Positions 3,298-23,709 of a stretch of DNA of 64,000 nucleotides are shown one piece after another. Made by a program: the position numbers and the translations under genes. Source of the DNA: an uncultured Verrucomicrobiae bacterium (lineage in GTDB: Bacteria; Verrucomicrobiota; Verrucomicrobiia; Limisphaerales; UBA11358); assembly GCA_963827815.1 (NCBI GenBank), contig CAWHCL010000003.1:20526-84525 (forward strand), given 5' to 3'. The notes under the pieces were generated by a model. The model ran no database searches. It saw only the letters and a program-made list of their open reading frames with translations, and was not told the origin of the DNA. Every line of letters starts with the position of its first letter. Position 1 is the first letter of the stretch.

Positions 3298-3385
3298 GCC
3301 GGTGTGGCGAAATGGCAGACGCACAGGACTTAAAATCCTGGGACCGTAAAAAGTCGTGTGGGTTCGAGTCCCACCACCGGCACCA
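3298..3385 (+). tRNA. tRNA-Leu, anticodon UAA, long variable arm, encoded CCA
   Basis: Acceptor GCCGGTG/CACCGGC. Anticodon arm CAGGA-CTTAAAA-TCCTG. T arm GTGGGTTCGAGTCCCAC. Discriminator A followed by CCA. Confidence 0.9.
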
Positions 3386-3445
3386 ATCTCTATATCATCA
3401 ATAGATACGGTAGTTTTACAATTTTTGAGCAGAACGCAGTTGCGT

Positions 3446-3474
3446 CTGCATAACGGTACTGCATAACGTATCTG
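3446..3474 (+). promoter_or_regulatory. candidate integrase arm-type binding site (left arm): CTGCATAACGGTACTGCATAACGTATCTG
   Basis: The doubled GCATAACG motif matches 23585-23613 at 25 of 29 positions in the same orientation, and lies about 60 nt inside the island end. Confidence 0.45.
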
Positions 3475-3980
3475 TCCGTGTTGTTGGTATCGTTTGCGTC
3501 TCTTCCTGTTTTTTACCAACCGCAATCCTCCGGCTCAATGGTTAGGCAAGAGTTATGCAAGGGTGTGGTGAAAGTGGGGAAGGAGTGTGGTGTTCTGGCG
3601 GCCGGGCGACGTTGGGACGGTTGCACAAGAATTATACAACAGTGTGGTGGATTGGCTGAAAGGGTGGGTGGAACTGATGCAGGGCTTCGGCGATCCAGAA
3701 AATGGCATTCGAGGGAGTGTTCACCAAGAGTATACCAAAAGTGCACCATTTTATTGAACCGGGATCGAAAACATGGTGCCAAGGTCGGTAAAGGTTCGGT
3801 AAAAGATTGGTGGGGCGGGAAGTGGCGGGCGAAAAGGACGGATTCCAAAGGACCGTGACCTTTGGCGCGGTCTGGTGTGCGTAACTCCAGCGCAGGGGTT
3901 TGGGGACGGCGCAAGTCCCCAATGGCAATGGCTGCGCGGCTGACGACCATCAAAGGCGTCAGCCGCGAAAATTTTTAGGG

Positions 3981-4005
3981 CGCACGGTGGCGAGCCGTGC
4001 GCCGT
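3981..4005 (-). terminator. hairpin GGCGCACGG-loop-CCGTGCGCC downstream of the 4011 gene
   Basis: Perfect 9-bp GC stem a few nt after the stop codon, followed on the minus strand by CTAAAAATTTTC. Confidence 0.45.
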
Positions 4006-4010
4006 GTCGG

Positions 4011-4432
4011 TCAATCTTCGTCGGGCATCATCACGGTGATGGCGGGTTGCGCGTCGGAAATGTCCATTGCGCTGCAAGTGGCGATCAACTTCACCAGCTT
4101 GGCGCGGGTGTTGTCGTTGCGGACATACATGGCGACGGGGATGCGGGTGCAAGTTGCACCTCCCTCTTCACCTGGGCGGGCACGGATGATTCCGAAACGG
4201 GTCATCCAAACGACATCCCAAAGGCGTCCGGCTTCGTCTTGGCCGGTCACGTCCGGCGGCACGGTGACGTAGGCTTCCCAAACTGCGCGGGTCAGGAACA
4301 TCGGGAATTTGATTCCGGCTTCCTGCGCGGTCTTGGTCACGTCCACTTGCACGCCATCGGCGACGGCATGTTTGCGGGTGTAGGAATAAATGACTTCGCC
4401 AAAAGTGCGATTCGGTGTTGGTTCGTGTTCAT
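4011..4432 (-). CDS. conserved hypothetical protein of mobile elements (FGEVIYSYTRKHAVADGVQVDVT motif, DUF6573-like from memory); the only ATG is in another frame
   Basis: ORF track 4011-4352 plus own upstream reading. The conserved-looking frame is open back to a TGA with no ATG/GTG/TTG before the motif. The ATG at 4432 is offset by one frame. Confidence 0.5.
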
Positions 4433-4479
4433 GGTATCTGGTTGGAAGTGGGGCACGCTGTCACCGCGCCCCGTTGTTG

Positions 4480-4961
4480 TCAGGCGGCGACTGCCTCGGT
4501 GGTCTGCGGCTTGGCCGCACGGCGGATGCGCGCCGGATAATAGCTCGAATACTTTTCGTGCGGGTCGTAGGCGCTGCTCAAGCGGAACTGGCCGCAAGGG
4601 TGCTGCCATGCCTGACGCTCACGATTCCAATGGAAACCAAGCTGCGCCAACTGCTGCCGAATCTCGGCGGCGGGCGTTTCCTTGAATGTCACCCAAACCC
4701 ACTTGCCGACTACCTCGGCCAAACGGTAAATGTCCGGCGCACTGGTCAACAAAAGGTTCAACACCTTCGGTGTGGGCAATGTGCGGTTTTTCTTCCGCGC
4801 TTCCGTGTCAATCGGCAGGCGATTGTCCGGCTTGTCCGTGCCGGACTGGCCTACTGCTGCGCTGGCGCAACTGCGCCCGCTGCTTCCGGTGTGTTTGTGC
4901 TGCTCAACTGTGCGGATTTGCTCTTGAGCCCGATCTGATTTTTTTGTGATGTAGTTTTCAT
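4480..4961 (-). CDS. hypothetical protein with C-terminal GKWVWVTF...LGFHWNRERQAWQH domain; the ATG at 4961 is out of frame, across an A7 run
   Basis: The C-terminal roughly 90 aa of the ORF look protein-like. The N-terminal part of the long ORF looks non-coding. ATG AAA ACT ACA TCA CAA AAA AAT reaches the long frame by a -1 shift at 4939-4945. Confidence 0.45.
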
Positions 4962-5688
4962 ATGCTTTTTTTTCTGCTCTGCTGTGCGTCTTTTGTCCGT
5001 CGCCCTTCACGAAAAAGCGGAGCCGCCAGCCCTCCCCCGTGGAAGTGCTCTTCAGAAGGTCGCCACGAGTGGGCGGGCTGGTCTTTCGGCGACGCCGTGA
5101 GGGCGATGGAGAAAAGCGCAGGAGCAGAAAAAGCCGGCATTGAAAACGAAGCTGCCGACACAAAAAACTTTGTTTTGACTATTCGAGCGGAGCGAGCTGA
5201 CTGAAGGGAAAGGGGGAGATTACGAACGGGTGCAGCGCGGGCTGCTGTTAGGCCGCAGTCTTATGCTTTCTGACTCTACCATACAAAATCCTCAATAATC
5301 TCATGAGCAACCAAATGACACAAACCGCACCGCAAACCGTCAAAATATACGTTGGAATCATCAACTTGTGATACAGTGTCCAGTCTCAATGTAGAATAAC
5401 TTTGCCAGCAGCGTCATGCAGAATTGAACCGTCTGGACCAACAAACGGACGAGCGGCGGGGGAATAGGCCGGAATGAACCCCGACGCTAAAAGGAATGAT
5501 AAGACAGCAACCCAAATCAGAGCCTTTGTTGACGGTGCTTTCACTGTGGCCTACCAGATAATGGACGGCTGGCTTTGCAGGTTATCCTGTTTCATGATTC
5601 TGAAATTATGCGTGTGCTGTTTGCGTGTCCAGAATTGTTTCGAGCGGAGCGAGCCAATTGACTTCCCCTGGCTGCATGAGAGGCGGAG

Positions 5689-5965
5689 CGGCGGAATTGG
5701 CATGAAGGATGCCTGCGAACTGGCGCGGTGCGTGCCGCACTGGCCTTCAGTGCGCCGACCGAGCGCGAGGGTCGGGAAGCACGCAGCGTGACAGTGAAGC
5801 AGCGGGCTGGCACACAACGGCACATTGTCTGACCTTAATTCCGCGCCGAAGGGTCCCGCTGGCGGGGAGTGTCGGCGCGAAAAGAATTAAGGTGGGAGGA
5901 ACGACCGAACGGACAATGTGTGTTGTGTGCCGCACCGGAAGCACTCCTTCATGCCAATTCCGCCG
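5689..5965. repeat. 277-nt branched imperfect palindrome (candidate structured RNA or DNA cruciform)
   Basis: Outer 21-nt perfect inverted repeat 5689-5709 / 5945-5965. Inner arms 5809-5829 / 5912-5931, 5833-5841 / 5884-5892 and 5842-5849 / 5872-5879. Local hairpins lie in the 99-nt left bulge. Confidence 0.6.
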
Positions 5966-6187
5966 CGTAGCCGATGGGTGCATTTACGGCGCAGTCGCGG
6001 TAGCGCGAAGCCATCGAATCCGAGTCCCCGCCGATGGAACGCAGCGGAATGCTGGCCGGATTTGGGGCGACCAGGGGAATCCGAGACAGCAGGCCGCGGA
6101 GTCCAGCGACGGGGTCTCGGACTAATCAGTTTTTCCAGCGGGGTCGGCCAATTTCGCAAGCGCAGCCTGCGGAGCGCCGCGAAAGTT

Positions 6188-6364
6188 GGACCGTCCCCGC
6201 GACTATTGCGGTCGTCTTGGCCGGGCGAAGCCTCGCGGCCTTATTGCTCGTCCTCGGCGATAGGCGGAGCCTCGCGCCGTATTGCTATGTCTTGCCCGTG
6301 CGAAGCATCGCGGGCTATTGCTTGCTGGCCGGACGTAGTCTCGCGGCCATTTTTGTCTTCGGGG
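6188..6364. repeat. five tandem degenerate repeats of about 35 nt, consensus near GCGAAGCNTCGCGGNCTATTGCTNGTCTTGGCC
   Basis: Units read by eye start at 6188, 6223, 6259, 6298 and 6331. Each has a small GCGA-NNNN-TCGC hairpin followed by a TATTGC motif. Confidence 0.6.
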
Positions 6365-7051
6365 GCGCACGATTTATTTCCTGACTGTCTCGCCAGTTTG
6401 CGGCCGTCGAAACGAATGAGCGGAAGCCAGGCATGGAGCCAGTGAATTTTGTGGCGGAATGCAGGGCTGGAGCGATTGGAGTGAAGCGGGTGCAAAGCTG
6501 GCGAGTCAGTCATCGTGCGCGGGCGGAACCGTGCCGATACTTGGCACGAGTGCAAGTGTCGGCTCGGTGAAGCCAGGGTGCGTGCCGCACTTGCCATTAT
6601 GCCGAGGAGCGAAGCGACGAGGTTGTATTGCCTGACACCGCGCCTGAAAATCATCCGCCAACATTTCACGGTTGGAATGCGCGAATGATATTCAAACACC
6701 TGAAGGCGTCCAACGCACGCGCGGTGTAGCGAAAGGCACGCCGAGGATGGCATCCGTAAACCATAGATGGCGTGCCGGTGCCCGCCAGCAGACCGCGTCA
6801 GCGGGCTGCGAGGGCATGAGCGTCAGGCATCCGCGCGTGCGCCCGCATGGTTCGTAAATGGAAACCGTGAATTGTTGTCGCGGTCCGTGCCGGACTGGCC
6901 ATCTGAGCGCGTAGTGGGTCAGGGAACGAAGCGCGAACTAACATTCTGTTGAGCAACGCGAACTAACTTTGTCTTTGAAGGGCGAACGAGGTCCAAGGCG
7001 CATTGTATGCCGCTTGTGTCTTTGCAACATTTCAGGTAATCGTTTTTCACC

Positions 7052-7987
7052 ATGCGGCGCCTCGACTCACGTTTTTGCACTTTGCTGAACAAATGGATGG
7101 CTTACATCTTCCTTGCTTTCATGTGGGGTATAACTATAAAAGCCTACGCGGAAGGGAACCACAGGGTTGACCTCCTGCATTACATTCTCCCCCCGGTTTC
7201 AGTCCTCATCTTGTGGTGGCTTTCGACTTTTAAGCAGGTCACACTTGACGGAGATACCTTGGTCATTCGTGGTTTTATACGAGAGGCGCGTGTTCCTGTG
7301 TCGCAGATCGAGCGCATTGGCAAACATCGCGGAGCCAAAGACCCTGATTTTATTACCATCTTTTTTAAGACCGAGACGGAGTTTGGGCGTCGTGTCCGTA
7401 TAATGACCGGAATCCGTTCGGACAGAGGGATTGACCAGATCGCCAAAATGTTGCAACGCGCAATGGGTGGGAAAGATGTTGGACCGAAAATCATTCAAGC
7501 TCCGCGTGAACTGGCGACGATTTCAGATCCAGCGAGTGGGAAAGAAGTAGTCGTGCGTGGGTGGACCAATGAAGAATTGTCGGGAATCCTGACTGATTTC
7601 GACGATTTGTCTGGTGACGATCTAGGTCCACACTTTGATTGCGAAGTCCATGCACGCGAAAATGGTTCCATCCGCATCACGTTTCCGCACGATATTCCTG
7701 CGCAGCAATTTTCATTTTTAATCAACTATTTGCAGTATCCCAAAAATTATGACCTTAAAGGGCGTTCCGTCTCGGTAGTCGGCAAAGCGATTATTTCTCC
7801 AAAATTCAAGCCGCCAAGCAAAAGCCTGATAGGCCAGACCGGCACTTTCTATATTCCAAAAGATGATCAAGCCTTTGATCTGGTTTATGTCCGTGTCGGA
7901 GACGAGACATTCGAGAATTCATTTGCTGCGCTTCATTGGAAGCGAGTGGCGGACTCGCGTATTCCACCTGATTTGGAAATCAAATAA
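7052..7987 (+). CDS. hypothetical membrane protein: two N-terminal TM helices, a PH-like segment and an unknown C-terminal domain
   Basis: ORF track. Hydrophobic N-terminus, then VTLDGDTLVIRGF...ITIFFK. Visibly AT-richer than its neighbours. Confidence 0.65.
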   Translation: MRRLDSRFCTLLNKWMAYIFLAFMWGITIKAYAEGNHRVDLLHYILPPVSVLILWWLSTFKQVTLDGDTLVIRGFIREARVPVSQIERIGKHRGAKDPDFITIFFKTETEFGRRVRIMTGIRSDRGIDQIAKMLQRAMGGKDVGPKIIQAPRELATISDPASGKEVVVRGWTNEELSGILTDFDDLSGDDLGPHFDCEVHARENGSIRITFPHDIPAQQFSFLINYLQYPKNYDLKGRSVSVVGKAIISPKFKPPSKSLIGQTGTFYIPKDDQAFDLVYVRVGDETFENSFAALHWKRVADSRIPPDLEIK

Positions 7988-8030
7988 TGAATTTTGAGCC
8001 TCCTCACGTCGGCTACTACGAAAATTGAAC

Positions 8031-8181
8031 TGGCTGGCATGGGCGTATCTACCAACTGACCGACTTCAGACACCGTCAACTCTCTCGGAACTAACACTGT
8101 CTGCTACCGTCAACCGACACTCACGCTCATACCAGCCAATGCACACTCGTCCCCTTTTCCAATCTGTCAAGTGGCTGTGTT
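8031..8181. repeat. 151-nt direct repeat, copy A
   Basis: Matches 10532-10682 with 3 mismatches, by hand alignment. Confidence 0.85.
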
Positions 8182-8425
8182 TGTCGCCCTGGCCGCCTTC
8201 AACTTTCTTGGCACGAGTTGCGCCCATAAAATAGCCAGATGATGACGCTGAACCAGTCGGGATGCCACCGGATTCCGTTTAAGCCGTGAAAATAAGAAAA
8301 CGTCTTATTATCGTTTTTTGCATTTTGTGAAAATAGCGGCAAAACGATAAATCCAAAGTGAACTTTAGAAATAGGCGATAAATCTAAACCAGACTTTAGA
8401 AAACGCGCCGTTGCGCGGCATGGGA

Positions 8426-9941: not shown

Positions 9942-10261
9942 TTATGCGAGATGATCAACATCGTTTTCTGATGATTTATGGACACCTACCGGCGCGGGTC
10001 GATGCGGAGCAAGCGGGCTGGTTGCTAAATTGTCTCCCGCATAACATTCCTATCCTGGTGGCTGCGCGGCTTTTGAAGCCATTAGGTAATCCGCCTGCCA
10101 ATAGCATCAAATTTTTCGCCACCGCAGAGATTCTAGAACTTTCCAAAGACAAGGCATGGCTGAGCAGGATGACGAATGCTGTCTATCAATATTGGCAAAG
10201 GAAGAACGCCAACAAAAAGCACCGAATCCTGGCTCAGACGGAGAATGCAAACTTAGCCTGA
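9938..10261 (+). CDS. hypothetical protein, possibly DNA-binding or excisionase-like
   Basis: ATGA overlap with the Zn-ribbon ORF implies coupling. LPARVDAEQAGWLLNCLPHNIPILVAARLLKP is HTH-like, but the assignment is weak. Confidence 0.45.
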   Translation: MIMRDDQHRFLMIYGHLPARVDAEQAGWLLNCLPHNIPILVAARLLKPLGNPPANSIKFFATAEILELSKDKAWLSRMTNAVYQYWQRKNANKKHRILAQTENANLA

Positions 10262-10531
10262 CGCGAAAATGATTAATTTCAAGCAACCGCAACGGATTGT
10301 TCCCAAACCTCAACCTGACGCCGCAAACAACACGTGGTGGCCGGCATGCTTATGCACCGAGGATGCCGCGCGTTATCTCGGCTTTGATCCATCAACAATT
10401 CCGTTTGGCGGGCCCTATCCCGAAGCTCAGAATTTACCACCTGCATCTTAAAGTTTGTTTGGTGTGCCGCGCTGGATGAGTCAAGTGTAAGTCAAGTTTT
10501 TGGTCAAGCGGTTGGAAATGGGAAAAGGGAT

Positions 10532-10682
10532 TGGCTGGCATGGGCGTATCTACCAACTGACCGACTTCAGACACCGTCAACTCTCCCGAAACCAACACTG
10601 TCTGCTACCGTCAACCGACACTCACGCTCATACCAGCCAATGCACACTCGTCCCCTTTTCCAATCTGTCAAGTGGCTGTGTT
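10532..10682. repeat. 151-nt direct repeat, copy B
   Basis: See copy A. Confidence 0.85.
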
Positions 10683-10888
10683 GCCGCCTTGGCCAACGTG
10701 AAAAGGCGAAATGAAAATTTGAAACTGCCCTACCTCACCCAATGCCCTCACCCCCAGCCCCTCTCCCATCCGATCCGCCTCCATCGGATTTCGGCGCGAC
10801 GGGTGGGCGAGGGTGGCGTCGGACTCTCCCTCCCATCCGATGGGCCGGAGAGGGAATATGCCGAGGCGTGAGAAATAAAATGGAAAAA

Positions 10889-12148
10889 TCAGGCCAGAAT
10901 GTATTGTCCGGTCTTCCTGGTGCCGACGCGCTTCACCAGTCCGGCCTTGATCAGAGGACGTAACAAATCCAGCGAACCTTGTTTGGAGACACCGAGCGCG
11001 TCCCACAGTTCACGCGGGGTCATGCCCCGATTGTCGCGCAATAAATCCAGCAACTGTTCCTGCTTTGGGCGTAAGACCAGTTTCTCCTGTCCCGGTTGGG
11101 CGGAAAGTTTCTGCACACGTATCCACACGCGCTCCAGTATCAGCAATAAACCTTCGGCACAGTATGCCAGCCATTGTGTTAAATCTTCGCCTTCACGGCG
11201 CACGCCGTCCAGTGCCTTGTAGTAGCGCGGGCGATTCTCCCAATAATATTCGTCCACGGAAAAAATGTGATGGGTGTCGAAGCCGCGCCGGTAAAGTTCC
11301 CACACCCGATTGATGAGAATGTCGCCATCGGCCAACGCGAACTGCTCCCGCTCTTTCTTACTTATCTGAAGGCGCTTTAGCTCTGACCAATTGGTGATTT
11401 TACCATCGTAGAAAGCGTCAATGCGGACGATTGGCGTTCCACTGCCATAACACGATTGGGGTTTGTAGAGTCCGTTATTTGGACCTTTGGAAATCAAACT
11501 TCCAAACTCAACCAACTCCCAACTGCGCGGCAAATCGTCTGGGCCATCATCGCCTTCCCGCCAATCGGCGGTGAGGCGGCCGGAGCAGGCGGCGGCAAGG
11601 ACGGATTGGCGAAAGCGTTTGAGCAGCGTCGGCAGTTTTTGCAGCCGCTGCTGGCAGGCGTCAACTTGGCTCAACAGCGTCTCCAGCTTCGCCACAATCT
11701 GCCGCTGTTCGGCCAACGGAGCGAGCGGCATTTCAAAATCTGTGATGACTTCATCCGATGTAGTCGGATACATCGTGCCCGTGCAGTTTTCGCCGAGGTA
11801 ATTGAGATAAGCACGATTCCAAGCCAAGAATTGCCACAAGCATTTTTCAGCAAGTGCGCCTTTGTTTCGCAGCACCGTGAATGCCGAAGAGACTTCAAGT
11901 TTATCTTCACGAATCTGGATTATTGCACCACGCGTTGGCCTGACTTTCGATACGAGCACATCATTCTTCTTCGCGACTCGGCATCCTTTGACGGAAGGTT
12001 TGTCCGTGAGCGTGTAATTTTTTGAGCCGATGTCTACGTTGCCGATTTCCAAATACGGAACAACACCTTCACGACCTTTTTCTTTGGGAACATCACATAA
12101 TTCGCTGATGCGAGCTGTTGCCCATCCTTGTGGCAGTTCGTCACTCAT
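10889..12148 (-). CDS. hsdS: type I R-M specificity subunit truncated in TRD2 and fused to the C-terminal part of a Fic-family protein, including its wHTH tail
   Basis: TRD1, then the central helix LAPLAEQRQIVAKLETLLSQVDACQQRLQ, then the start of TRD2 up to GDILINRV (junction near 11300). After that come WELYRRGFDTHHIFSVDEYYWENRPRYYKAL...GEDLTQWLAYCAEGL and LRPKQEQLLDLL...MTPRELWDALGVSKQGSLDLLRPLIKAGLVKRVG. No HPFxxGNGR motif is present. Confidence 0.8.
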   Translation of the reverse strand: MSDELPQGWATARISELCDVPKEKGREGVVPYLEIGNVDIGSKNYTLTDKPSVKGCRVAKKNDVLVSKVRPTRGAIIQIREDKLEVSSAFTVLRNKGALAEKCLWQFLAWNRAYLNYLGENCTGTMYPTTSDEVITDFEMPLAPLAEQRQIVAKLETLLSQVDACQQRLQKLPTLLKRFRQSVLAAACSGRLTADWREGDDGPDDLPRSWELVEFGSLISKGPNNGLYKPQSCYGSGTPIVRIDAFYDGKITNWSELKRLQISKKEREQFALADGDILINRVWELYRRGFDTHHIFSVDEYYWENRPRYYKALDGVRREGEDLTQWLAYCAEGLLLILERVWIRVQKLSAQPGQEKLVLRPKQEQLLDLLRDNRGMTPRELWDALGVSKQGSLDLLRPLIKAGLVKRVGTRKTGQYILA

Positions 12149-12531
12149 TCCGAAATTTCCTGAAGGAATAAGATTTTATAGACGTTGGTTCGATTTGCCT
12201 GCTGCTCACGAAAACGAATTTCATTCGCGTCTGACGACTGGCCGATGACCTTGAACCGGCCACGGTAATACCATTTGCCATCCAACTCTTGAACGAACAC
12301 CGGAACAGGTTCGGCCTGCGCACAAAATGTATCGGCCCATGGAGCGATGAACTTTCCATTTTTTGGGATGATCTCGTATGGCGCGCGCGGATTCTTGTCG
12401 ATCCGAAGACAAGCGGCAGCAACTTTATCCGTGCCCTTGTAGTGAAGCACGTAAAAGACAGGTCCGGCCACCGCGTTCAATCCGGTTAGAATTTCGCTCC
12501 ACTCGTAGGTTTGATTTTTGATGAAGTCCAT
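12145..12531 (-). CDS. 128-aa hypothetical protein translationally coupled to hsdS; tentatively a PUA/SRA- or DUF3427-like beta-barrel
   Basis: ATGA overlap with the hsdS start. PVPVFVQELDGKWYYRGRFKV resembles the barrel-type motif of modified-DNA reader domains. This is a guess. Confidence 0.6.
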   Translation of the reverse strand: MDFIKNQTYEWSEILTGLNAVAGPVFYVLHYKGTDKVAAACLRIDKNPRAPYEIIPKNGKFIAPWADTFCAQAEPVPVFVQELDGKWYYRGRFKVIGQSSDANEIRFREQQANRTNVYKILFLQEISE

Positions 12532-12569
12532 TAAATGATTGATTATTTCTTCACGCCTCCGTTGCCTTT

Positions 12570-12641
12570 GTAGCAGCCGACGTGAGAAGGCTCCAATTGA
12601 AAATCGGAAATTGAAATGAGCCTCGTCACCTCGGCTGCTAC
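12570..12641. repeat. REP-like hairpin with arms GTAGCAGCCGACGTGAGAAGGCTC / GAGCCTCGTCACCTCGGCTGCTAC
   Basis: 24-nt imperfect inverted arms around a 24-nt loop. A third related arm lies at 7996-8019. Confidence 0.6.
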
Positions 12642-12661
12642 GCGATTGTATTGGCCGTCGC

Positions 12662-12760
12662 TCACTTTTCCACCCCTTCCTCTTTTTCCAGCAGCGTGAT
12701 GATTTCGCGCAAATCGTCCACGACGGATTCCAGTTCCGTGATGGCTTCCGCCTTCGCTGC
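12662..12760 (-). pseudogene. orphan duplicate of the hsdM 3' end, covering the last 30-35 codons plus the stop
   Basis: It encodes ...AEAITELESVVDDLREIITLLEKEEGVEK*, against the hsdM tail ...TEAVTELEAVVDDLREIIELLEKEEGVEK*. The first 26 nt, counted from the stop codon (plus-strand TCA at 12662-12664), are identical, and the copy is out of frame with hsdM. Confidence 0.7.
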
Positions 12761-12798
12761 GCTTCGGCGCGACAGGTCGCTTTGGCGTGGATTGGCGG

Positions 12799-14256
12799 TC
12801 ACTTTTCCACCCCTTCCTCTTTTTCGAGCAACTCGATTATTTCCCTAAGGTCATCCACCACCGCCTCAAGTTCTGTGACCGCTTCAGTTGCCAAGTCCTG
12901 CGGTTCGGGCAGTTCGTCGCTGTCTTCCAGCGAGTCGTCCTTGAGCCAGGTCACGTCCAATTTGAATTGGCGATTGCGGATTTCGGAATGCGGAAAACAA
13001 CGGAAGCGTCCGGTCTCGCCGCCATCGGTCCGTTTGCTCAAGCCGTTCGGGTCTTTGCCGTAGGCTTTTTCAAATTCTTCAAAGTGCGCCGACGTGAGCG
13101 GACGATCTTTCTTGGTGATGCCGGGCACGTTGGAGCGCGCGTCGAAAATCCAGACGTTTTCCGTGGGTTTGCCCTTTTGCAGGAAGATGACATTGGCTTT
13201 CACGCCCTGGCTGTATGGCGTGAACGTGCCGCGCGGCAGGCGCAGGACGGTGTGCAGGTTGCAGTCCTGCATGAGAATCTCGAAGACCTCGCCGGCCTTG
13301 CCCTCGAACAGGCAATTGTCCGGCAGCACAATGGCGGCGCGTCCGCCGGGTTTTAGGATGGTAAGGACGTGCTGGACGAAGTTGAGCTGCTTGTTGCTGG
13401 TCTCGATGGTGAAGTCGTCGCGGTCGGGCGCTTGGTTCGCGCCTTTCGTGCCGAAGGGCGGATTGGTAAGGACGCAATCGAAACGGTCGCCTCGATCCGG
13501 TTCGTAAATGGTGTCGCCCAGCGCGATATGCGGTTCGACGCCGTGCAGGAACAGGTTCATAAGCGCGAGCCGGCGCGGGCGCGGCACGAGGTCCTGACCG
13601 TGATACACTTTTTTGCGGATGAAATAATCGGCGCGGTCAAACACGCCGCCGGAGACGGGCTTGGAGATGAGCCATTCCCACGCGCAGACGAGAAAGCCGC
13701 CGGTGCCGCAGGCGGGATCGCAGAGGCGGAAGTCGGGATTGCCGCGCGGGTCGGGCTTCATGACGCGGCAGATGGTCTGGATGAGCGGGCGGGGCGTGAA
13801 GTATTGGCCTGCGCCTTTCTTGCCTTCGCTGGCGGCCTTTTCGAGCAGGCCCTCGAACGCCGCGCCTTTCACGTCCACATCCATGGCGGACCAGTCTTCC
13901 TCGTCAATCATGGCGATGACGCGCTTGAGGTTGACGGGATTGTTGAAGCGCGGCGTGGCCTGCGCAAAGATGTCGCCAAGGAGGCCGGCGGACTCGCGCA
14001 ATTTTCGAAGATTGTCAGCGTATTGATCGGTCAGGGCGGTGCCGGACTTTTCCTTGAGACAGGCCCAGGAACAATCCGAGGTTTCCCTTTGGCCTTTGGC
14101 ATTGGTGGATTGAACCTTGGTGAGGTCCACGCCGCGTTCCTCGGCCATTTTCAGGAACAGCAGGTAGGTGAGTTGCTCGATGTAGTCGCCGTAATCCACG
14201 CCGTCATGGCGCAGGGTGTGACAGAAGCCCCAGAGTTTTTGGACGATGTCGGACAT
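12799..14256 (-). CDS. hsdM: type I R-M N6-adenine DNA methyltransferase subunit
   Basis: N-terminal HsdM-type region, motif I DPACGTGGFL, motif IV TNPPFG. Confidence 0.95.
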   Translation of the reverse strand: MSDIVQKLWGFCHTLRHDGVDYGDYIEQLTYLLFLKMAEERGVDLTKVQSTNAKGQRETSDCSWACLKEKSGTALTDQYADNLRKLRESAGLLGDIFAQATPRFNNPVNLKRVIAMIDEEDWSAMDVDVKGAAFEGLLEKAASEGKKGAGQYFTPRPLIQTICRVMKPDPRGNPDFRLCDPACGTGGFLVCAWEWLISKPVSGGVFDRADYFIRKKVYHGQDLVPRPRRLALMNLFLHGVEPHIALGDTIYEPDRGDRFDCVLTNPPFGTKGANQAPDRDDFTIETSNKQLNFVQHVLTILKPGGRAAIVLPDNCLFEGKAGEVFEILMQDCNLHTVLRLPRGTFTPYSQGVKANVIFLQKGKPTENVWIFDARSNVPGITKKDRPLTSAHFEEFEKAYGKDPNGLSKRTDGGETGRFRCFPHSEIRNRQFKLDVTWLKDDSLEDSDELPEPQDLATEAVTELEAVVDDLREIIELLEKEEGVEK

Positions 14257-14258
14257 GA

Positions 14259-15545
14259 TTATTTATTTGGCTTTTCAGAATCCGTAGTCGGGGCCGGATT
14301 TACCGATGAAAAGAGTTTGCCAGCAATGGCTGGTCGGTAATTTGGGGGAGACTTCAAGTAGTTTAAATTAATTTTGGGCATTGAAGCCAATGCAGCCCCC
14401 AATGATTTCATAGCATTTTGCATTTCTGGGCTGTTAAAACCTGAAAGCGCCACTTTTGCCATCGGACTGATAAAAGTAAACTGACTGTCAATATAGCTAA
14501 TATTTTCCAAGGTGTAATTACTAAAAGCACCATCATCCGCTATGGTGCATTTCCATTCCACATCAAAGAACACTGTCAACGTTGATTCCCGAATGTATCC
14601 GGAAGAAGTATTTTTGTAATCGACCAAGTAATTGATCCTCGTTTTCCATCGATATGAGTTATCTCCTGTAACACTATTTAGACTTGTTTCTCCGACGACC
14701 AATCTCTTCGTTTCCGGCGAAGGCTCCCATCCGACCGCAAGGACCGTTTCATAAATATTTTTGGGTGTAGGCAGGGCTAAATGCTTTTGTTGTTCTGTTT
14801 CTATACGTTTCTGAAGATCAAATTCATAAAACAAACCAGACTCATCTGATTGATCATAAAACTGTTTGCCTGCATTGGTCAGCATTGTGTTTACGAATGC
14901 CTCTTCAAGTTGTTTGCTCATCAATTCGATTTTTGATCGAAATAACCCGAGAGATTTGTAAACGGTAAATCTGTCTGTTTGGCCAATCTTGGCGTTTGTT
15001 GCCTCCGTCAAAATTTGGTCCCCACAAATAAAAGCAATATGGTCAACGTGTTTTGTTTCATAAAGGTACGCAACGGTTTCCATGACCAGCCTGTCTCGGA
15101 AACCTTTTTCCTCGTCAGGGTTTTCAATAAAGGGTGGATTCCGCCAGATGGCATCCTCAATGACTAACTTCCAATCAATTTTTGTGTCAGGTGTCGGGAT
15201 TTCCACACCACCCACAGACTTCAGCCAGTCGGCAAAGCGCGTCATAAGTGCCTTTTTTAGGGTGGATAGGTCTGGCGCAGGCGGACTCTCGAGACCGGTG
15301 CAATCCTTAACCGTCGCCATATTCTTGCTCAGATTCTCAAGTGATTGTCTTACGGTTGAAAACTTCTGAAACAGAATTTCTCCAACCACAACAGCAGGAA
15401 CCTCAATACGACCTTTCCCAATTTTTCTACAATTATTCCATTCCGTCTCAAATCCGGGGGAGACAATTTGTTGCGGCTTGTTAGTAAACAGGCTGTTTGA
15501 ATCCGGAATTACCGAGTATGTTGTTGTTCTTTTCGGATGGGACAT
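14259..15545 (-). CDS. PIN-like nuclease-domain protein with an unknown C-terminal domain of about 230 aa, embedded in the hsd operon
   Basis: Intact 428-aa ORF, 21 nt after the hsdR stop and 2 nt before the hsdM start. AT-rich. Acidic residues sit in PIN-like contexts: IPDSN, VVVGEI, FRDRLVMET, FICGDQ. Confidence 0.7.
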   Translation of the reverse strand: MSHPKRTTTYSVIPDSNSLFTNKPQQIVSPGFETEWNNCRKIGKGRIEVPAVVVGEILFQKFSTVRQSLENLSKNMATVKDCTGLESPPAPDLSTLKKALMTRFADWLKSVGGVEIPTPDTKIDWKLVIEDAIWRNPPFIENPDEEKGFRDRLVMETVAYLYETKHVDHIAFICGDQILTEATNAKIGQTDRFTVYKSLGLFRSKIELMSKQLEEAFVNTMLTNAGKQFYDQSDESGLFYEFDLQKRIETEQQKHLALPTPKNIYETVLAVGWEPSPETKRLVVGETSLNSVTGDNSYRWKTRINYLVDYKNTSSGYIRESTLTVFFDVEWKCTIADDGAFSNYTLENISYIDSQFTFISPMAKVALSGFNSPEMQNAMKSLGAALASMPKINLNYLKSPPNYRPAIAGKLFSSVNPAPTTDSEKPNK

Positions 15546-15566
15546 TTTGATTCCTTTTTTCAGGGT

Positions 15567-18260
15567 TCAGGCGGCAATCGCTTCGTTCAGTTGGGCCACG
15601 AGCAAATTCAATTCGCCAAAAACTTGACGGGCGCGCGCCACGCCGCCGCGACCTTGCAGCAGTGGCGTGTTGTCAAAATCATCCTCGTCAATGGTGAGGT
15701 TCTTGATGAGTTGCTCGCGGACGAGCGAGAGCCATTGCATTTGCTCGGTGGTGAATTTGTGTTTTGCCGCCAGCGCGTCCATGGCGCGATTCACGCGTTC
15801 CTCGGCGGTGAGCAAGGGCGATTGCCCGGCGGCGGCGTGCTTGACGATGGAAATGACGTCAGCCAGGGCCTTGAAGCCACGGGCGCGGTGGGCGCGCTGT
15901 AGTTTTTCCGGGTCGAAGCCGTTTTGGTTGAATGCGCGCTTGAGGTCTTCCAGCACGCCGGGCCGCCAGTCTTTGGGATGCTGGAGCAGCACGCCCAGCG
16001 CGGCGACTTTGGCGGCGTTGGCCCGCACGAATTTCTCAAAGGCGTCGAGGTAGTCTTCGGCACTGTCGAACTGGCCATAGCGTTCGAGTTTCTCAGAGGT
16101 GACGACGTCTTTGTCCTCAATGGTGGAGGTGAAGATGCGCCGTGCGCGCGGGTATTCGAGCAGCAACTTTTGAAAATCCTTGTTTCGCAGCAGTTTCATG
16201 GTGCCGGCGAAATCGGATTTCAGCGCCGACGGCAGCTCCCTGGCGAACGCGGCCACGTCGCCACCGGCAATCCACGCTGCAAACTGCGTTCGGGCCTCGC
16301 CGCTCATGTCTTTGTCAATCCGCAGCAGGCGTTTGGCGAGAACTTTGACGTGGTAATCGCGATCCACGCTCTGCCAAATATTCTCGATGACTTCGATGAT
16401 GGTGAGCGGCGTTTTGCCCGGCGGCTGGAGGTCGAAGCTGGAGACGTTCTTGAAATACCGGATGAGCGTGCCGTCGAAGCAGTCAAAGATGACGAACTTG
16501 GTTTTGTTGATGTCGTTGCAACGGCGCGTGCCGCGCCCGAGCATCTGCTCCCACAGGATGCGGGACTTGACCGGACGCAGAAACACGATGAATTCCAGCG
16601 CAGGGATGTCAACGCCGGTGGAGAGCATGTCCACGGTGACGACGACCTTGGGATTGGGGCGGTTGCGGAACTCACGGATGCGCTGGAGCGGCCGGTCCAC
16701 GTTGGGGTTGCCGGTGATTTTTTTGACGAAGTCGTCGCCCTGCTTGAATTCGTCCCGGCAGATTTTCACCAACTGATCGGCGTGAGAGGTGTGCGGGATG
16801 TCGTTGACGGCGAAAATCAGGATTTTTGGAAAGCGGCCTGTGACAGCCTCGTGTTCGTAGGCGTATTTGGCGACTTCCTGGATGATCTTGCGATTGCTGT
16901 CGGGTGCGGTGATGGAGCGCTCGACATCGGCGGCATCGTAGGCGCGCTCGTCTTCCAACTGATCGAGCGCCAACTGGCCGGTGTCGGTGTCCACGCGCTC
17001 GACGGTCTCGCCTTCCTTAAGAAACACGCCTTTCATGCGGACATCGGATTTGATGGCGACGGGCTCGTAATCCACGAGGTAGCCATCGAGGATGGCCTGT
17101 TCGACAGTGTAACGGAAGACCGGCGGCCCGAAAACCGCCGTGGTGTGCGCCGCCGGCGTGGCGGTGAGGCCGACCTTGACGGCGTCGAAATGATTGATGG
17201 TCGCGCGCCAGATGCTCATCTCTTCCGCCGTGTAGCCGCGATGACATTCGTCGGCAATGATTAGATCAAAGGCGTGGATGGGGATGTCGAGCTTGTCCGC
17301 ATCCGCTTCAGCTTCGGTGTCGCCGCCGCCCTGGGCGAAGCAGCCTTCCGCGCCAAAGAGATTGCGCGCCATTCGCTGGATGGTGGAGACGTAAACAAAG
17401 GTGTGCGAGGCCTTTGGCGCGGTCAGGTATTCATTGGGCAGCACCTTGGGGTCGAATGGTTCGTCGTCACCGAAATCCTCTTTTTGGAATTTCTGGCTGT
17501 AGAGTTCGTATTCCTGGGTGAACTTCTGGCCCGAGGGCGTGCTGAAGGCGTTGAACTCGCGCACGGCCTGGGCGGCGAGAGCTTTGCGATCCACGAGGAA
17601 CAGGATGCGCTTGAACTGGCCACTCTTGAGCAGGCGATAGACTTGGGCCACGGTGAGAAACGTTTTGCCCGTGCCGGTGGCAAGGGCGAGAAGAAGTTCG
17701 CGCCGGCTGGAACGGATGGCGGCCTCGGTGGCCGTGATGGCGCCCACCTGATACGGACGCAACCGGACGATGTGTTCGGGCGGCGTATCGAGCAGCCAAT
17801 CGTGGGCGAGCTTGGAATTGAAGGCGAATTTTTCCGCCAGAGCCGGGGCGGTGTGGAAATCCGCGACGGGTCGGGAGGTCGGTTTATCCGACCGGACATC
17901 GAGGTGCCAGATGATCTCACCGTTGGTGGCGTAGAGGAATGGAACGTGGAAGCCATTCCAGTTGCCGGGACCATTCGTCGCCCCCTTGGCGTAGCGCTTG
18001 GCTTGTTCCAGGACGTTCTGGGGGTTCACGGTTACCTTTTTGGCCTCGATGATGCCGAGAAAAATGCCATCCACGAAGAGGGCGTAGTCGGCGGGGCCAT
18101 TCTCGGTAGGAAATTCGGTGACCGCGTGGCAGGTGAGCTTGGAGGTATCGATGCCGGCTTGCCAAGGGATGATTTGCCACGGCGGATTGAGCGCCCGCAG
18201 CCGGGTATCAATCCGATTTTTCCTAGTCAGCCATTCCGCCTCGTGCATAGGTAGTTGCAT
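15567..18260 (-). CDS. hsdR: type I restriction endonuclease R subunit
   Basis: N-terminal nuclease motif ADYALF...GIIEAKK, helicase motif I ATGTGKT, DEAD box IADECHRG, EcoEI-R-like C-terminal region. Confidence 0.95.
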   Translation of the reverse strand: MQLPMHEAEWLTRKNRIDTRLRALNPPWQIIPWQAGIDTSKLTCHAVTEFPTENGPADYALFVDGIFLGIIEAKKVTVNPQNVLEQAKRYAKGATNGPGNWNGFHVPFLYATNGEIIWHLDVRSDKPTSRPVADFHTAPALAEKFAFNSKLAHDWLLDTPPEHIVRLRPYQVGAITATEAAIRSSRRELLLALATGTGKTFLTVAQVYRLLKSGQFKRILFLVDRKALAAQAVREFNAFSTPSGQKFTQEYELYSQKFQKEDFGDDEPFDPKVLPNEYLTAPKASHTFVYVSTIQRMARNLFGAEGCFAQGGGDTEAEADADKLDIPIHAFDLIIADECHRGYTAEEMSIWRATINHFDAVKVGLTATPAAHTTAVFGPPVFRYTVEQAILDGYLVDYEPVAIKSDVRMKGVFLKEGETVERVDTDTGQLALDQLEDERAYDAADVERSITAPDSNRKIIQEVAKYAYEHEAVTGRFPKILIFAVNDIPHTSHADQLVKICRDEFKQGDDFVKKITGNPNVDRPLQRIREFRNRPNPKVVVTVDMLSTGVDIPALEFIVFLRPVKSRILWEQMLGRGTRRCNDINKTKFVIFDCFDGTLIRYFKNVSSFDLQPPGKTPLTIIEVIENIWQSVDRDYHVKVLAKRLLRIDKDMSGEARTQFAAWIAGGDVAAFARELPSALKSDFAGTMKLLRNKDFQKLLLEYPRARRIFTSTIEDKDVVTSEKLERYGQFDSAEDYLDAFEKFVRANAAKVAALGVLLQHPKDWRPGVLEDLKRAFNQNGFDPEKLQRAHRARGFKALADVISIVKHAAAGQSPLLTAEERVNRAMDALAAKHKFTTEQMQWLSLVREQLIKNLTIDEDDFDNTPLLQGRGGVARARQVFGELNLLVAQLNEAIAA

Positions 18261-18411: not shown

Positions 18412-18966
18412 TTAGGCCGGAAGATTTAATTTGAGGTCGGCGAGACATGATTCGATGCCTTCAAGGAGTTCCCAGACCTGGGCCTCTGTCCGATTCAATT
18501 GCCAGCAGGCGGCGTCCCGGGCGGCCGCGTAGTTCAACAGGGCGCTGTCCCAGTTCATGCCAATAGTTGCAAAATAATGCGCTTTGCGCTGAGTCAGCCA
18601 TTCGCGTAGTTGCCGGTCATCGCATTGGCGCGTCAGGTAGGCGATGACTAAATCGCGCCGGGCCGTGGTTGGTGGTCCTTGCGGACGGCCACCGTTAAAA
18701 CCTGAAAGCGGAAATTTGAAACCTGAAAGTCCTTCCGGAGGCGTCGTTCCGAACCGGCAGTCCTTACGTCCCGCTTTTTTCGGACTGGCACTTTTAACCG
18801 CTGTGGTTGTGAGCAGGACAAGGACCTCGGTTTTGTGGCGGCGGAGTTCGTCGGCCAGTTCGGACGGCAGTTTTGAGGCCGGGCGAACGGCCAGTCCGCC
18901 ACCAGCCCGGGGTTCGAGCTGGAGGCCGAGGCCGCGCGCCCGTTGCAGGAGGTCGGCGGCGGTCAT
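18412..18966 (-). CDS. hypothetical protein of the replication module
   Basis: ATGA overlap with the primase stop. The N-terminal LLQRARGLGLQLEPRAGGGLAVRP...ELRRHKTEVLVLL docking-type motif is common in mobile elements. Confidence 0.55.
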   Translation of the reverse strand: MTAADLLQRARGLGLQLEPRAGGGLAVRPASKLPSELADELRRHKTEVLVLLTTTAVKSASPKKAGRKDCRFGTTPPEGLSGFKFPLSGFNGGRPQGPPTTARRDLVIAYLTRQCDDRQLREWLTQRKAHYFATIGMNWDSALLNYAAARDAACWQLNRTEAQVWELLEGIESCLADLKLNLPA

Positions 18967-21780: not shown

Positions 21781-22368
21781 CTAACGGCGGGCGCGATGGA
21801 CGTGGTTTCGTTTTTGACCCTTGCGGAGTCCACGTTTATCGGGAGCCAATATCAGACCTAATTCCTTGGCGCGATTGCGGATGGTTTTGATATCGCAAGT
21901 AAAGCCTGGCGCCCTGAACTTGACGAGCGCGAGTATCTGTCTGGCGGTGCGATTAAGATGCTTCAACTTAACCCACTTAAAATCGAAAGGCTTATCGCTA
22001 AGGCGAATTAAATCTTTGGAACGTTCCAACAATGCCGAGCTCACCGGATCCACCGGGGAATACCTCCAATAGTCAAAGCCAGGTTGACCTTTGACATTTT
22101 CCACAGCCGCAATCGTCCAGTCCTCCAACAATTCGACAAACGCATGAACATCGGCGAATTGTTTTTTGTTGATGGCGTCAGCAAACAAGGCAAGCAGCTT
22201 GCGAGCAGGATCTTTCTTAGATTTGTTTTTAACATCATAGTGAATACCCCGTGCGAGCCAAAACATTGCCTGATTTTCCAATGCCCTGGCCCCGTATTGC
22301 GCGACGAAATCCTGATCTTCCCGAGACAGGGAAGACAGATAAAGTTCATACTTTCCTTTGTTTCTCAT
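21781..22368 (-). CDS. hypothetical protein
   Basis: ORF track. 4-nt overlap with the integrase stop. AT-richer than its surroundings. Confidence 0.55.
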   Translation of the reverse strand: MRNKGKYELYLSSLSREDQDFVAQYGARALENQAMFWLARGIHYDVKNKSKKDPARKLLALFADAINKKQFADVHAFVELLEDWTIAAVENVKGQPGFDYWRYSPVDPVSSALLERSKDLIRLSDKPFDFKWVKLKHLNRTARQILALVKFRAPGFTCDIKTIRNRAKELGLILAPDKRGLRKGQKRNHVHRARR

Positions 22369-23579: not shown

Positions 23580-23584
23580 AAAAG

Positions 23585-23613
23585 CTGCATAACGGTAGCG
23601 CATAACGTGTGTG
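23585..23613 (+). promoter_or_regulatory. candidate integrase arm-type site (right arm): CTGCATAACGGTAGCGCATAACGTGTGTG
   Basis: Partner of 3446-3474. It lies between the integrase ATG and the att core. Confidence 0.45.
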
Positions 23614-23666
23614 GGTGTCAAGTGTATCATAAATGTTGTGATTTCGAGTGATTTTGACAGCGAGCA

Positions 23667-23709
23667 GGCCAAAAACGTCGTGTGGGTTCAAGTCCCGCCA
23701 CCGGCACCA
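23667..23709 (+). repeat. attR: 43-nt copy of the 3' end of tRNA-Leu (variable arm end, T arm, acceptor 3' strand, CCA)
   Basis: GGCCAAAAACGTCGTGTGGGTTCAAGTCCCGCCACCGGCACCA against tRNA 3343-3385. No 5' half of the tRNA lies upstream. Confidence 0.8.

Follow-up and report, generated by a model that had tools for sequence, protein, structure and literature searches.

A conserved non-coding module of Verrucomicrobia prophages, most likely a structured RNA, stranded in a tRNA-Leu island

Positions 4951-7000 of the 64-kb stretch of DNA analysed here (the window), minus a 441-nt insert, are a well-preserved copy of a large, intricately base-paired non-coding module of 1.5-2.2 kb that is most likely an RNA. 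The module is native to a family of small Verrucomicrobiota prophage-like elements, where it lies between the large-terminase and portal genes. In the window it is found without these genes, in a tRNA-Leu island and beside two broken genes. The available metatranscriptome contigs carry no strand information, and the assignment to RNA rather than to single-stranded DNA, the ends of the transcript and its function are inferred.

Conservation and absence of coding signal

A preliminary description had noted that this region has no credible ORF but carries recurring hairpin motifs, and had proposed a large ncRNA, an origin region or decayed DNA. We confirmed the observation. The 18-nt motif GTSCGTGCCGSACTKGCC occurs exactly at 4834, 5728, 6578 and 6883, all on the + strand, and nowhere else in the 64 kb, whereas 0.03 occurrences were expected by chance. 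The 16-nt box TTCGAGCGGAGCGAGC occurs at 5182 and 5639, and CGCGAACTAAC occurs at 6932 and 6957. Tandem units of about 37 nt lie at 6218-6367, and a perfect 22-bp inverted repeat pairs 5688-5709 with 5945-5966. A further copy of the box that had been placed near 6608 is only a related GCGAAGC element. More generally, GCGNAGC occurs 12 times on the + strand of 4945-7000 and 0 times on the - strand, against a background of about 0.4-0.5 per kb on either strand.

To determine if the stretch is coding, we examined GC3 periodicity in the window and substitution patterns across 80 related loci. There was no GC3 periodicity, and substitutions in 4941-7000 showed no 3-nt periodicity (for example 0.151/0.155/0.157), although the two flanking genes showed it clearly (0.343/0.114/0.185 and 0.180/0.337/0.139). 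Indels in the non-coding part were mostly 1-2 nt. No intact ORF was found in the homologous stretch of relatives, and ORF clusters inside it were rejected as shadows of DNA conservation. Apart from the copy-specific insert, the stretch is conserved at 65-90% nucleotide identity across dozens of species-level genomes, and its domains keep a fixed order in 45-60 of 80 Verrucomicrobiota loci and in IMG/VR viral contigs. The neighbouring genes in these elements are terminase, portal, scaffold, major capsid protein and adaptor. In all 9 IMG/VR loci that were anchored on the portal gene and had enough upstream DNA, domains A-G lie upstream of the portal gene on the same strand. In a pattern scan of viral sequences, 18 of the 23 hits were chance matches, as predicted arithmetically, and 5 were real.

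We divided the region into the following parts.

4011-4436 (- strand): DUF6573 gene, probably a pseudogene here.
4480-4961 (- strand): P0001 family gene of unknown function, frameshifted in the window and so a pseudogene.
4834-4851 (+ strand): copy 1 of the 18-nt hairpin motif, inserted in the P0001 reading frame; the other copies are at 5728-5745, 6578-6595 and 6883-6900.
4951-5165 (+ strand): domain A, an imperfect hairpin of about 200 nt whose base overlaps the ATG (4961-4959, - strand) and the A-rich leader of the P0001 gene, followed by the conserved tail YTGAAAAC.
5198-5638 (no strand assigned): copy-specific 441-nt insert, bracketed by a perfect 16-nt direct repeat TTCGAGCGGAGCGAGC (5182-5197 and 5639-5654), with a 37-aa hydrophobic ORF on the - strand (5248-5361).
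5680-5975 (+ strand): domain B, a branched palindrome with an outer helix 5688-5709/5945-5966 and inner helices 5719-5735/5779-5795 and 5807-5830/5911-5933.
5976-6190 (+ strand): domain C, a long helix 6019-6047/6094-6121 enclosing a variable tip, plus a hairpin 6145-6154/6183-6193.
6190-6380 (+ strand): domain D, 4-5 tandem units of 33-39 nt, each with an outer 4-5-bp stem, an inner 3-bp stem with a GNA triloop and a UCG bulge, separated by UAUUGCU-type linkers.
6381-6600 (+ strand): domain E, a long helix 6384-6413/6481-6510 and a hairpin 6528-6537/6559-6568, with a hotspot for variable insertions at its 3′ end.
6601-6890 (+ strand): domain F, helices 6715-6723/6832-6840 and 6735-6739/6772-6776, a GNNA-loop hairpin near 6790, and helix 6629-6636/6822-6829, which crosses the first one, giving a pseudoknot.
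6891-7000 (+ strand): domain G, with little secondary structure but conserved repeated boxes (TTGAGC-N3-GCGAAC-yrAyTTTG) that include the two CGCGAACTAAC copies; it looks like a promoter or operator and lies just upstream of the next + strand gene (7052-7987).

The insert has a GC content of 0.48 against 0.61 in its flanks. No related locus covers 5236-5635, and metagenome contigs join 5197 to 5661.

Covariation, folding strand and the state of the window copy

Domains A-F contain helices with heavy compensatory covariation. Domain A (z = -8) and the branched palindrome (z = -14) both fold well beyond shuffled sequences. The fold energy of domain A is -113.4 kcal/mol on the + strand and -98.1 on the - strand. 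In 53 sequences, 12 of its 23 consensus pairs show compensatory changes, with G-U 60 against A-C 3; nhmmer matches both strands because the domain is palindromic. In domain B (42 sequences, 47 pairs), 94.9% were paired against 81.6% in shuffles, 27 pairs show compensatory change, none of 500 shuffles reached the observed values, slid controls gave 23-46% paired, and one G-U pair is invariant in 42/42 sequences. In domain C (38 sequences), 97.1% were paired and 17 of 22 pairs were compensatory, again with 0 of 500 shuffles reaching the observed values, and its second hairpin has 10 bp, 9 of them covarying. Overall, slid controls gave 23-53% paired against 88-97% for the true structure.

The units of domain D covary within the window (GGC/GCC, UGC/GCA, GAC/GUC), and across 29 sequences 12 of 18 pairs are compensatory. 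Their copy number varies among relatives, and metagenome contigs show expansion and contraction joints. In domain E, 17 of 28 pairs are compensatory in 44 sequences, and insertions of up to several hundred nt occur at 6578-6600 in relatives. In domain F, 0 of 500 shuffles reached the observed covariation score, pair 142-438 is UA 24 / CG 19, and coordinated indels occur on both strands of the crossing helix, in support of the pseudoknot. This domain is duplicated in several relatives. In contrast, an alignment of 35 sequences of domain G gave only 3 consensus pairs, none of them compensatory. The pooled non-Watson-Crick cells were G-U 290, A-G 62, G-G 47 and A-C 29, indicating that the + strand, which is the sense strand of the phage genes, folds.

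The window copy has 0-1 broken pairs per domain and keeps the invariant positions. The proposal of decayed DNA is therefore wrong for the non-coding stretch but right for the two adjacent genes, which are both frameshifted here but intact in 60 of 80 relatives. For P0001, 60 of 80 relatives have an intact MKT... ORF of 125-155 aa, whereas the window needs a frame change and the frame breaks exactly at the first 18-nt hairpin. P0001 had no match in Pfam, PHROGs, NCBIfam or PDB, and an AlphaFold model (pLDDT 68.7) had no Foldseek match with E below 0.7. The DUF6573 gene (Pfam PF20213, E = 1e-17) has its only ATG one frame off; the family occurs in 227 PLSDB plasmids, 129 of them conjugative.

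The 18-nt hairpin, which the preliminary description stressed most, is not part of the conserved fold, as it is absent from the homologous positions in 24 relatives. It is a phage-wide, strand-specific hairpin that appears as lineage-specific insertions. In 1.07 Mb of related loci its core lies 60:1 on the phage-gene strand, and an ATG lies exactly 8 nt after the stem in 11 of 60 copies. Three of the window's copies lie inside the non-coding stretch.

RNA, single-stranded DNA and other readings

With moderate confidence, we favor a multi-domain structured RNA, which was the best supported of the three options in the preliminary description. The module is most likely transcribed on the window's + strand, and the transcript would fold into a chain of independently closed domains, in which A, B, C and E are long hairpins, D is an array of small hairpins, F is pseudoknotted and G is a promoter- or operator-like box region. 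It would work as a structured RNA of the phage's late (packaging and head) program, and could act in cis as a giant leader controlling the downstream operon, or in trans as a protein-binding or self-assembling scaffold like other large ornate phage RNAs. In this reading the module was carried, without terminase or portal, into a tRNA-Leu island that has its own integrase, primase and defense cargo, where its two protein-coding neighbors have decayed but the fold has not. Pieces of the module occur in more than 20 metatranscriptomes from separate studies. However, over a whole prophage the RNA-run depth profile resembles a DNA run, so that DNA carry-over cannot be excluded, and no convincing promoter or terminator for a + strand RNA was found. 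One adapter-bearing cDNA fragment (5821-5947) would imply a - strand RNA if the library were dUTP-stranded, but a single fragment proves nothing.

The main rival, which we consider possible but less likely, is that the structures form in single-stranded DNA of the + strand, as a phage-borne counterpart of the establishment (leading) region of conjugative plasmids. Long hairpins on the template strand of the P0001-DUF6573 operon would then act as single-strand promoters or priming signals (Frpo, ssi or sso-like) when the element is transiently single-stranded, for example during rolling-circle replication or an unrecognized transfer route. The + strand is the template for P0001 and DUF6573, hairpin A ends on the P0001 start codon, and DUF6573 is a plasmid family. 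In the PromA-type conjugative plasmid pK1219-2, a 260-nt nested hairpin overlaps the start codon of the first gene of the DUF6573 operon and folds better on the template strand (-86.9 against -79.2 kcal/mol); GCGNAGC is enriched 6:2 on that strand, and 7:1 in pP33-1. The F-plasmid Frpo region shows the same kind of strand bias in fold energy (-121.4 against -112.0). The loops of the conserved small hairpins are mostly cGNAg and cGNNAg with a pyrimidine at the third position (GAA, GGA, GUA, GUUA, GUCA, GCCA), which appear to be the classic hyper-stable DNA mini-hairpin loops rather than GNRA or UNCG and fit DNA at least as well. RadC-like JAB genes also occur in the same slot in some relatives. 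On the other hand, the carriers are tailed-phage-like elements in which no relaxase or mating apparatus was seen, so no known single-stranded transfer stage exists. A consensus scan found no conserved -35/-10 hexamers in hairpins A or B, although the host's promoter consensus is known only from one TTGACA upstream of the SAM riboswitch; the only conserved -35-like word (TTGAAA) lies at the base of a hairpin, with no paired -10. The plasmid parallel rests on one plasmid lineage, and a Xanthomonas plasmid and F show no GCGNAGC bias. In rearranged relatives, B-F lie downstream of the operon rather than upstream, yet remain conserved and keep their orientation to the phage genes; most of the ORFs following B in such loci are Arg/Pro-rich shadows. 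A pseudoknot and an array of small hairpins with conserved linkers are also unusual for single-strand promoters.

A double-stranded-DNA control region, such as a replication origin, a packaging (pac/cos) site or a partition site with iterons bound by the island's primase-helicase or a helper phage's terminase, is improbable. The tandem repeats of variable copy number, the direct-repeat boxes in G, the position next to the terminase gene in the phages, and retention in an island with a primase but no capsid genes, as for a satellite keeping its helper's cis site, would fit this reading, and G alone may well be such a site. However, long-range compensatory changes and the 10:1 G-U to A-C asymmetry cannot be explained by duplex binding sites, and the D units covary as hairpins. 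An origin in the classical sense is not supported, because there is no AT-rich unwinding element (GC is 0.59-0.64), the primase gene (18963-21338) is 12 kb away, and in the phages the terminase gene separates the module from the replication genes. Functionless debris or a chance accumulation of host repeats is very unlikely. Although the frameshifted neighbors, the insert and the four inserted hairpins show that this copy is being remodeled, this reading is contradicted by the covariation and conservation data.

Relation to known systems and significance

No known family was recognized. A window scan at Rfam 15 gathering thresholds found only tRNA-Leu and a distant SAM riboswitch; thus no threshold was reached for GOLLD, ROOL, OLE, HEARO, phi29 pRNA or any other family. 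A permissive scan of 3300-8200 found nothing below E = 3.6 in the stretch, and a permissive scan of 9 related loci gave no recurrent hit. Comparison of 4945-7000 by blastn with GenBank phages and with 72,556 PLSDB plasmids gave no match, and literature searches on DUF6573, on large non-coding RNA with phage, GOLLD and ROOL, and on Verrucomicrobia with prophage, non-coding RNA and terminase found no description.

Like GOLLD and ROOL RNAs (PMC12286853), the module has many covarying helices and a pseudoknot, is carried by prophage-type elements, often near tRNA genes, and has no associated protein-coding function and an unknown role. It differs in being about two to three times longer, in being built as a string of separately closed long hairpins with a tandem hairpin array, and in its fixed position between terminase and portal genes. 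Frpo/ssi promoters of plasmid leading regions (Masai and Arai 1997; PMC11541004) share a long imperfect hairpin on the template strand directly upstream of small plasmid-type establishment genes, with better folding of the template strand. The module has no similarity to known Frpo sequences, is 5-7 times larger and is multi-domain with a pseudoknot. The analogy to phi29-type pRNA, a phage-encoded structured RNA linked to the packaging ATPase and portal, rests on position only; the module is ten times larger and these phages have a classical large terminase. Domain D resembles type III antitoxin arrays (ToxI-like tandem 34-40-nt RNA repeats) and their phage mimics in its repeat period and variable copy number, but its units are hairpins with linkers rather than ToxI-type pseudoknot units, and no ToxN/AbiQ-family gene was found next to D in the window or in relatives. 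D is not a CRISPR array, because its units are 62-74% alike with no unique spacers, and there was no Rfam CRISPR repeat hit in the window.

A bolder interpretation, which remains doubtful, is that the module is a new class of very large (1.5-2 kb), pseudoknotted, multi-domain RNA that is an obligatory component of the packaging and head module of a widespread family of small soil and wetland Verrucomicrobia phages. Because it would work on its own, integrative islands such as this one would capture and keep it even after its neighboring genes die, and the island could use it to exploit or to block a helper phage. A second bold, mutually exclusive alternative is that this is the first plasmid-style single-stranded-DNA establishment structure found in a tailed phage, an extension of such signals that would be just as unexpected.

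Very few large structured non-coding RNAs are known in bacteria and phages, their functions are mostly unsolved, and this family is larger than any of them. It is abundant in soil, peat and wetland metagenomes and metatranscriptomes, with dozens of diverged copies already available for structure modeling. Its fixed place between terminase and portal gives a concrete hypothesis about late gene expression or packaging, and the orphan copy in the window provides a natural experiment in which the fold survives while its neighboring genes decay.

The recurrent motifs and their conservation

The recurring elements noted in the preliminary description, which found no credible ORF here but dense hairpin motifs, were confirmed. 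The 18-nt motif GTSCGTGCCGSACTKGCC lies at 4834, 5728, 6578 and 6883, always on the + strand, and occurs nowhere else in the 64-kb window, where 0.03 occurrences were expected by chance. A repeat search recovered the remaining features, namely the 16-nt box TTCGAGCGGAGCGAGC at 5182 and 5639, CGCGAACTAAC at 6932 and 6957, the tandem units of about 37 nt at 6218-6367, and a perfect 22-bp inverted repeat (5688-5709/5945-5966). The boxes that had been described as GAGCGGAGCGAGC-type belong to a wider pattern: GCGNAGC occurs 12 times on the + strand of 4945-7000 and never on the - strand, whereas the background is about 0.4-0.5 per kb on either strand. There was no GC3 periodicity. Domain A (4951-5165) and the branched palindrome fold far better than shuffled sequences (z = -8 and z = -14, respectively). 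A search of Rfam 15 found only the tRNA-Leu at 3298-3385 and a SAM riboswitch far away.

To determine how widely the stretch is distributed, we searched public metagenomes. Soil, peat and rhizosphere samples hold many variants of 3800-5140, 5640-5970 and 6140-6970 at 85-99% identity, with 1-nt indels, but they skip 5140-5640 and the gene at 7052-7987. A search with the adjacent gene product P0001 retrieved 80 loci, nearly all from Verrucomicrobiota genomes assembled from metagenomes, often several per genome. In blastn and nhmmer comparisons the non-coding stretch was present in 45-60 of these loci, always in the same order, which along the + strand of the window is as follows.

4951-5165, domain A
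a variable linker
5680-5975, domain B
to 6190, domain C
to 6380, domain D
to 6600, domain E
to 6890, domain F
to about 7000, domain G

Substitutions in the two flanking genes were strongly 3-periodic (0.343/0.114/0.185 and 0.180/0.337/0.139), whereas in every non-coding segment they were flat, for example 0.151/0.155/0.157, and indels there were mostly 1-2 nt. Segment 5198-5638 was found in no relative. It is bracketed by a perfect 16-nt direct repeat, has a GC content of 0.48 against 0.61, and is an insertion specific to this copy. It carries on the - strand (5248-5361) a 37-aa ORF, MIPTYILTVCGAVCVIWLLMRLLRILYGRVRKHKTAA, with one hydrophobic helix and a basic tail, the shape of a type I toxin, and has sigma-70-like promoter matches on both strands (5270-5299 +, 5368-5397 + and 5372-5344 -). 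A G+T-skewed, ORF-poor stretch with 11-nt periodic repeats at 3536-3716 is shared with only about 5 of the related loci and is not part of the core module.

Folding of the + strand

Domains A to F showed compensatory changes in their paired positions.

Base pairs with compensatory change in each domain.
Domain A: 53 sequences, 12 of 23 pairs
Domain B: 42 sequences, 27 of 47 pairs
Domain C: 38 sequences, 17 of 22 pairs
Domain D: 29 sequences, 12 of 18 pairs
Domain E: 44 sequences, 17 of 28 pairs
Domain F: 45 sequences, 9 of 19 pairs

When controls were applied, domain B was 94.9% paired against 81.6% in shuffles, with 0 of 500 shuffles reaching the observed values, and slid registers gave only 23-46% paired. 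Domain C was 97.1% paired against 80.2%. In domain F, helix 6629-6636/6822-6829 crosses helix 6715-6723/6832-6840, which makes a pseudoknot. The crossing helix covaries (UA 24 / CG 19 at one pair) and even shows coordinated loss of a base pair on both strands. Pooled over the helices, non-Watson-Crick cells were G-U 290, A-G 62, G-G 47, A-C 29, C-U 19 and C-C 16, and one G-U pair was invariant in 42/42 sequences, indicating that selection acts on the + strand of the window. In contrast, domain G has almost no structure but has conserved repeated boxes, TTGAGC-N3-GCGAAC-yrAyTTTG, which look like DNA-level promoter or operator sites in front of the next + strand gene.

The 18-nt hairpin, although prominent in the preliminary description, is something else. 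At 5728, 6578 and 6883 the 24 full-length relatives lack it, and it sits in variable tips or at domain junctions. In 1.07 Mb of related loci its core (GTSCG-WGC-CGSAC, with the compensating S), which is followed by NNGCC, occurs 60 times on the phage-gene strand and once on the other, and in 11 of 60 cases an ATG lies exactly 8 nt after the stem (…GCCAYCATG). It is therefore a phage-wide, strand-specific hairpin of the sense strand that spreads as small insertions, and it is a candidate phage-specific 5′-leader, processing or initiation signal. Its presence inside the module is mild evidence that the module lies within phage-sense transcription units.

Phage origin of the module and its orphan copy

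In the related loci the neighbors are phage genes: large terminase (phrog_979/2), portal (DUF4055, phrog_145), scaffold (phrog_206), major capsid protein (phrog_247), head-tail adaptor, primase, an AAA_25 helicase, a PIF1 helicase and an integrase. Nearly all run in one direction, which corresponds to the + strand of the window, in the order terminase, the opposite-strand pair DUF6573 and P0001, domains A to G, variable cargo, and portal, scaffold and capsid. The cargo of the terminase-portal gap is swappable, and in relatives (for example loci L014 at 7864-8304, L077 at 10101-10838 and L018 at 7670-8335, and similar positions) includes a RadC-like JAB protein, a Pur-alpha-like (DUF3276-type) nucleic-acid-binding protein and an SOS-response-associated peptidase (SRAP). 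Domain F is present twice in several relatives (loci L018, L038, L047, L049, L051, L053 and L059), and in some of them the P0001-DUF6573 pair, with A, a partial D, F and G, sits between two sets of domains, so the domains behave as separable modules. ORFs following B in rearranged loci are mostly shadows. To test the association independently, we anchored on the portal protein in IMG/VR. All 9 viral contigs with enough upstream DNA carry A-G upstream of the portal gene on the same strand. The module is therefore a constant feature of this phage family rather than sporadic cargo. It has no blastn relative in GenBank phages or PLSDB plasmids, and we found no description of it in the searchable literature. 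Most hits of a pattern scan of viral sequences were chance.

In the window, the module lies directly after tRNA-Leu at one end of an island that also holds the following.

10889-18260, a type I restriction system with a PIN gene
18963-21338, a primase-helicase
22365-23672, an integrase

There is no terminase or portal gene, and the orientation of the module relative to the integrase and primase is opposite to that in the prophages. It is therefore a captured or orphaned copy and not a simple deletion derivative. Both flanking genes are broken here: P0001 (4480-4961) changes frame exactly where one 18-nt hairpin is inserted (4834-4851), and DUF6573 (4011-4436) has its only ATG one frame off. 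Because relatives have intact ORFs (60 of 80 for P0001), programmed frameshifting is an unlikely explanation. P0001 itself gave no family or fold match in the libraries searched. Just beyond the 3′ end of DUF6573, two GC-rich hairpins flank AAAATTTTT (3935-4005). This stretch is conserved in 17-29 relatives and, from the sequence alone, reads like a bidirectional terminator, which would insulate the opposite-strand gene pair from terminase transcription. Although the two flanking genes are broken, the non-coding domains keep the invariant positions of the family and have 0-1 broken pairs per domain, within the normal range.

RNA or single-stranded DNA as the folded molecule

Whether the folded molecule is RNA or single-stranded DNA is the main open point, and we consider RNA only somewhat more likely than not. 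The folding strand is the sense strand of almost all phage genes, and orientation to the portal gene is invariant, even in rearranged relatives where B-F lie downstream of the P0001-DUF6573 pair. In addition, F contains a pseudoknot, D is an array of small hairpins with conserved linkers, and pieces of the module occur in more than 20 metatranscriptomes. However, the depth of RNA runs over a whole prophage follows a DNA run, the contigs have no direction, and no promoter or terminator for a + strand RNA was recognized. The conserved small loops are cGNAg and cGNNAg, not GNRA or UNCG, and loops of the former two types, as in d(GCGAAGC), are probably the most stable in DNA.

The alternative that the structures form in single-stranded DNA remains possible, although less likely. 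The + strand is the template of the plasmid-type operon, and DUF6573 occurs in 227 plasmids, mostly conjugative. In PromA-type conjugative plasmids (pK1219-2 of Citrobacter koseri, 5709-6654, and pP33-1), an intergenic region of about 0.9 kb upstream of the DUF6573 operon holds a 105-nt hairpin and a 260-nt nested hairpin whose base overlaps the first start codon, and GCGNAGC is enriched 6-7 to 1-2 on the template strand. This region is a candidate undescribed single-strand promoter or leader. The 260-nt hairpin of a PromA-type plasmid overlaps the first start codon and folds better on the template strand, which is the same geometry as in domain A and in F-plasmid Frpo. However, the parallel rests on one plasmid lineage, a Xanthomonas plasmid and F show no GCGNAGC bias, no -35/-10 hexamers were found when the stems were scanned for them, and these elements have no known single-stranded transfer stage. 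A purely duplex-DNA site is unlikely and would apply mostly to G, and mere debris is very improbable.

These results lead us to favor a model in which the conserved, non-coding module of phage origin is a + strand, multi-domain structured RNA made from the terminase-portal gap, with G acting as a DNA-level control region. The RNA identity, the transcript ends and the role are inferred in this model. The RNA would work either as a giant leader for the downstream cargo, portal and head operon, or as a trans-acting scaffold in packaging or counter-defence.
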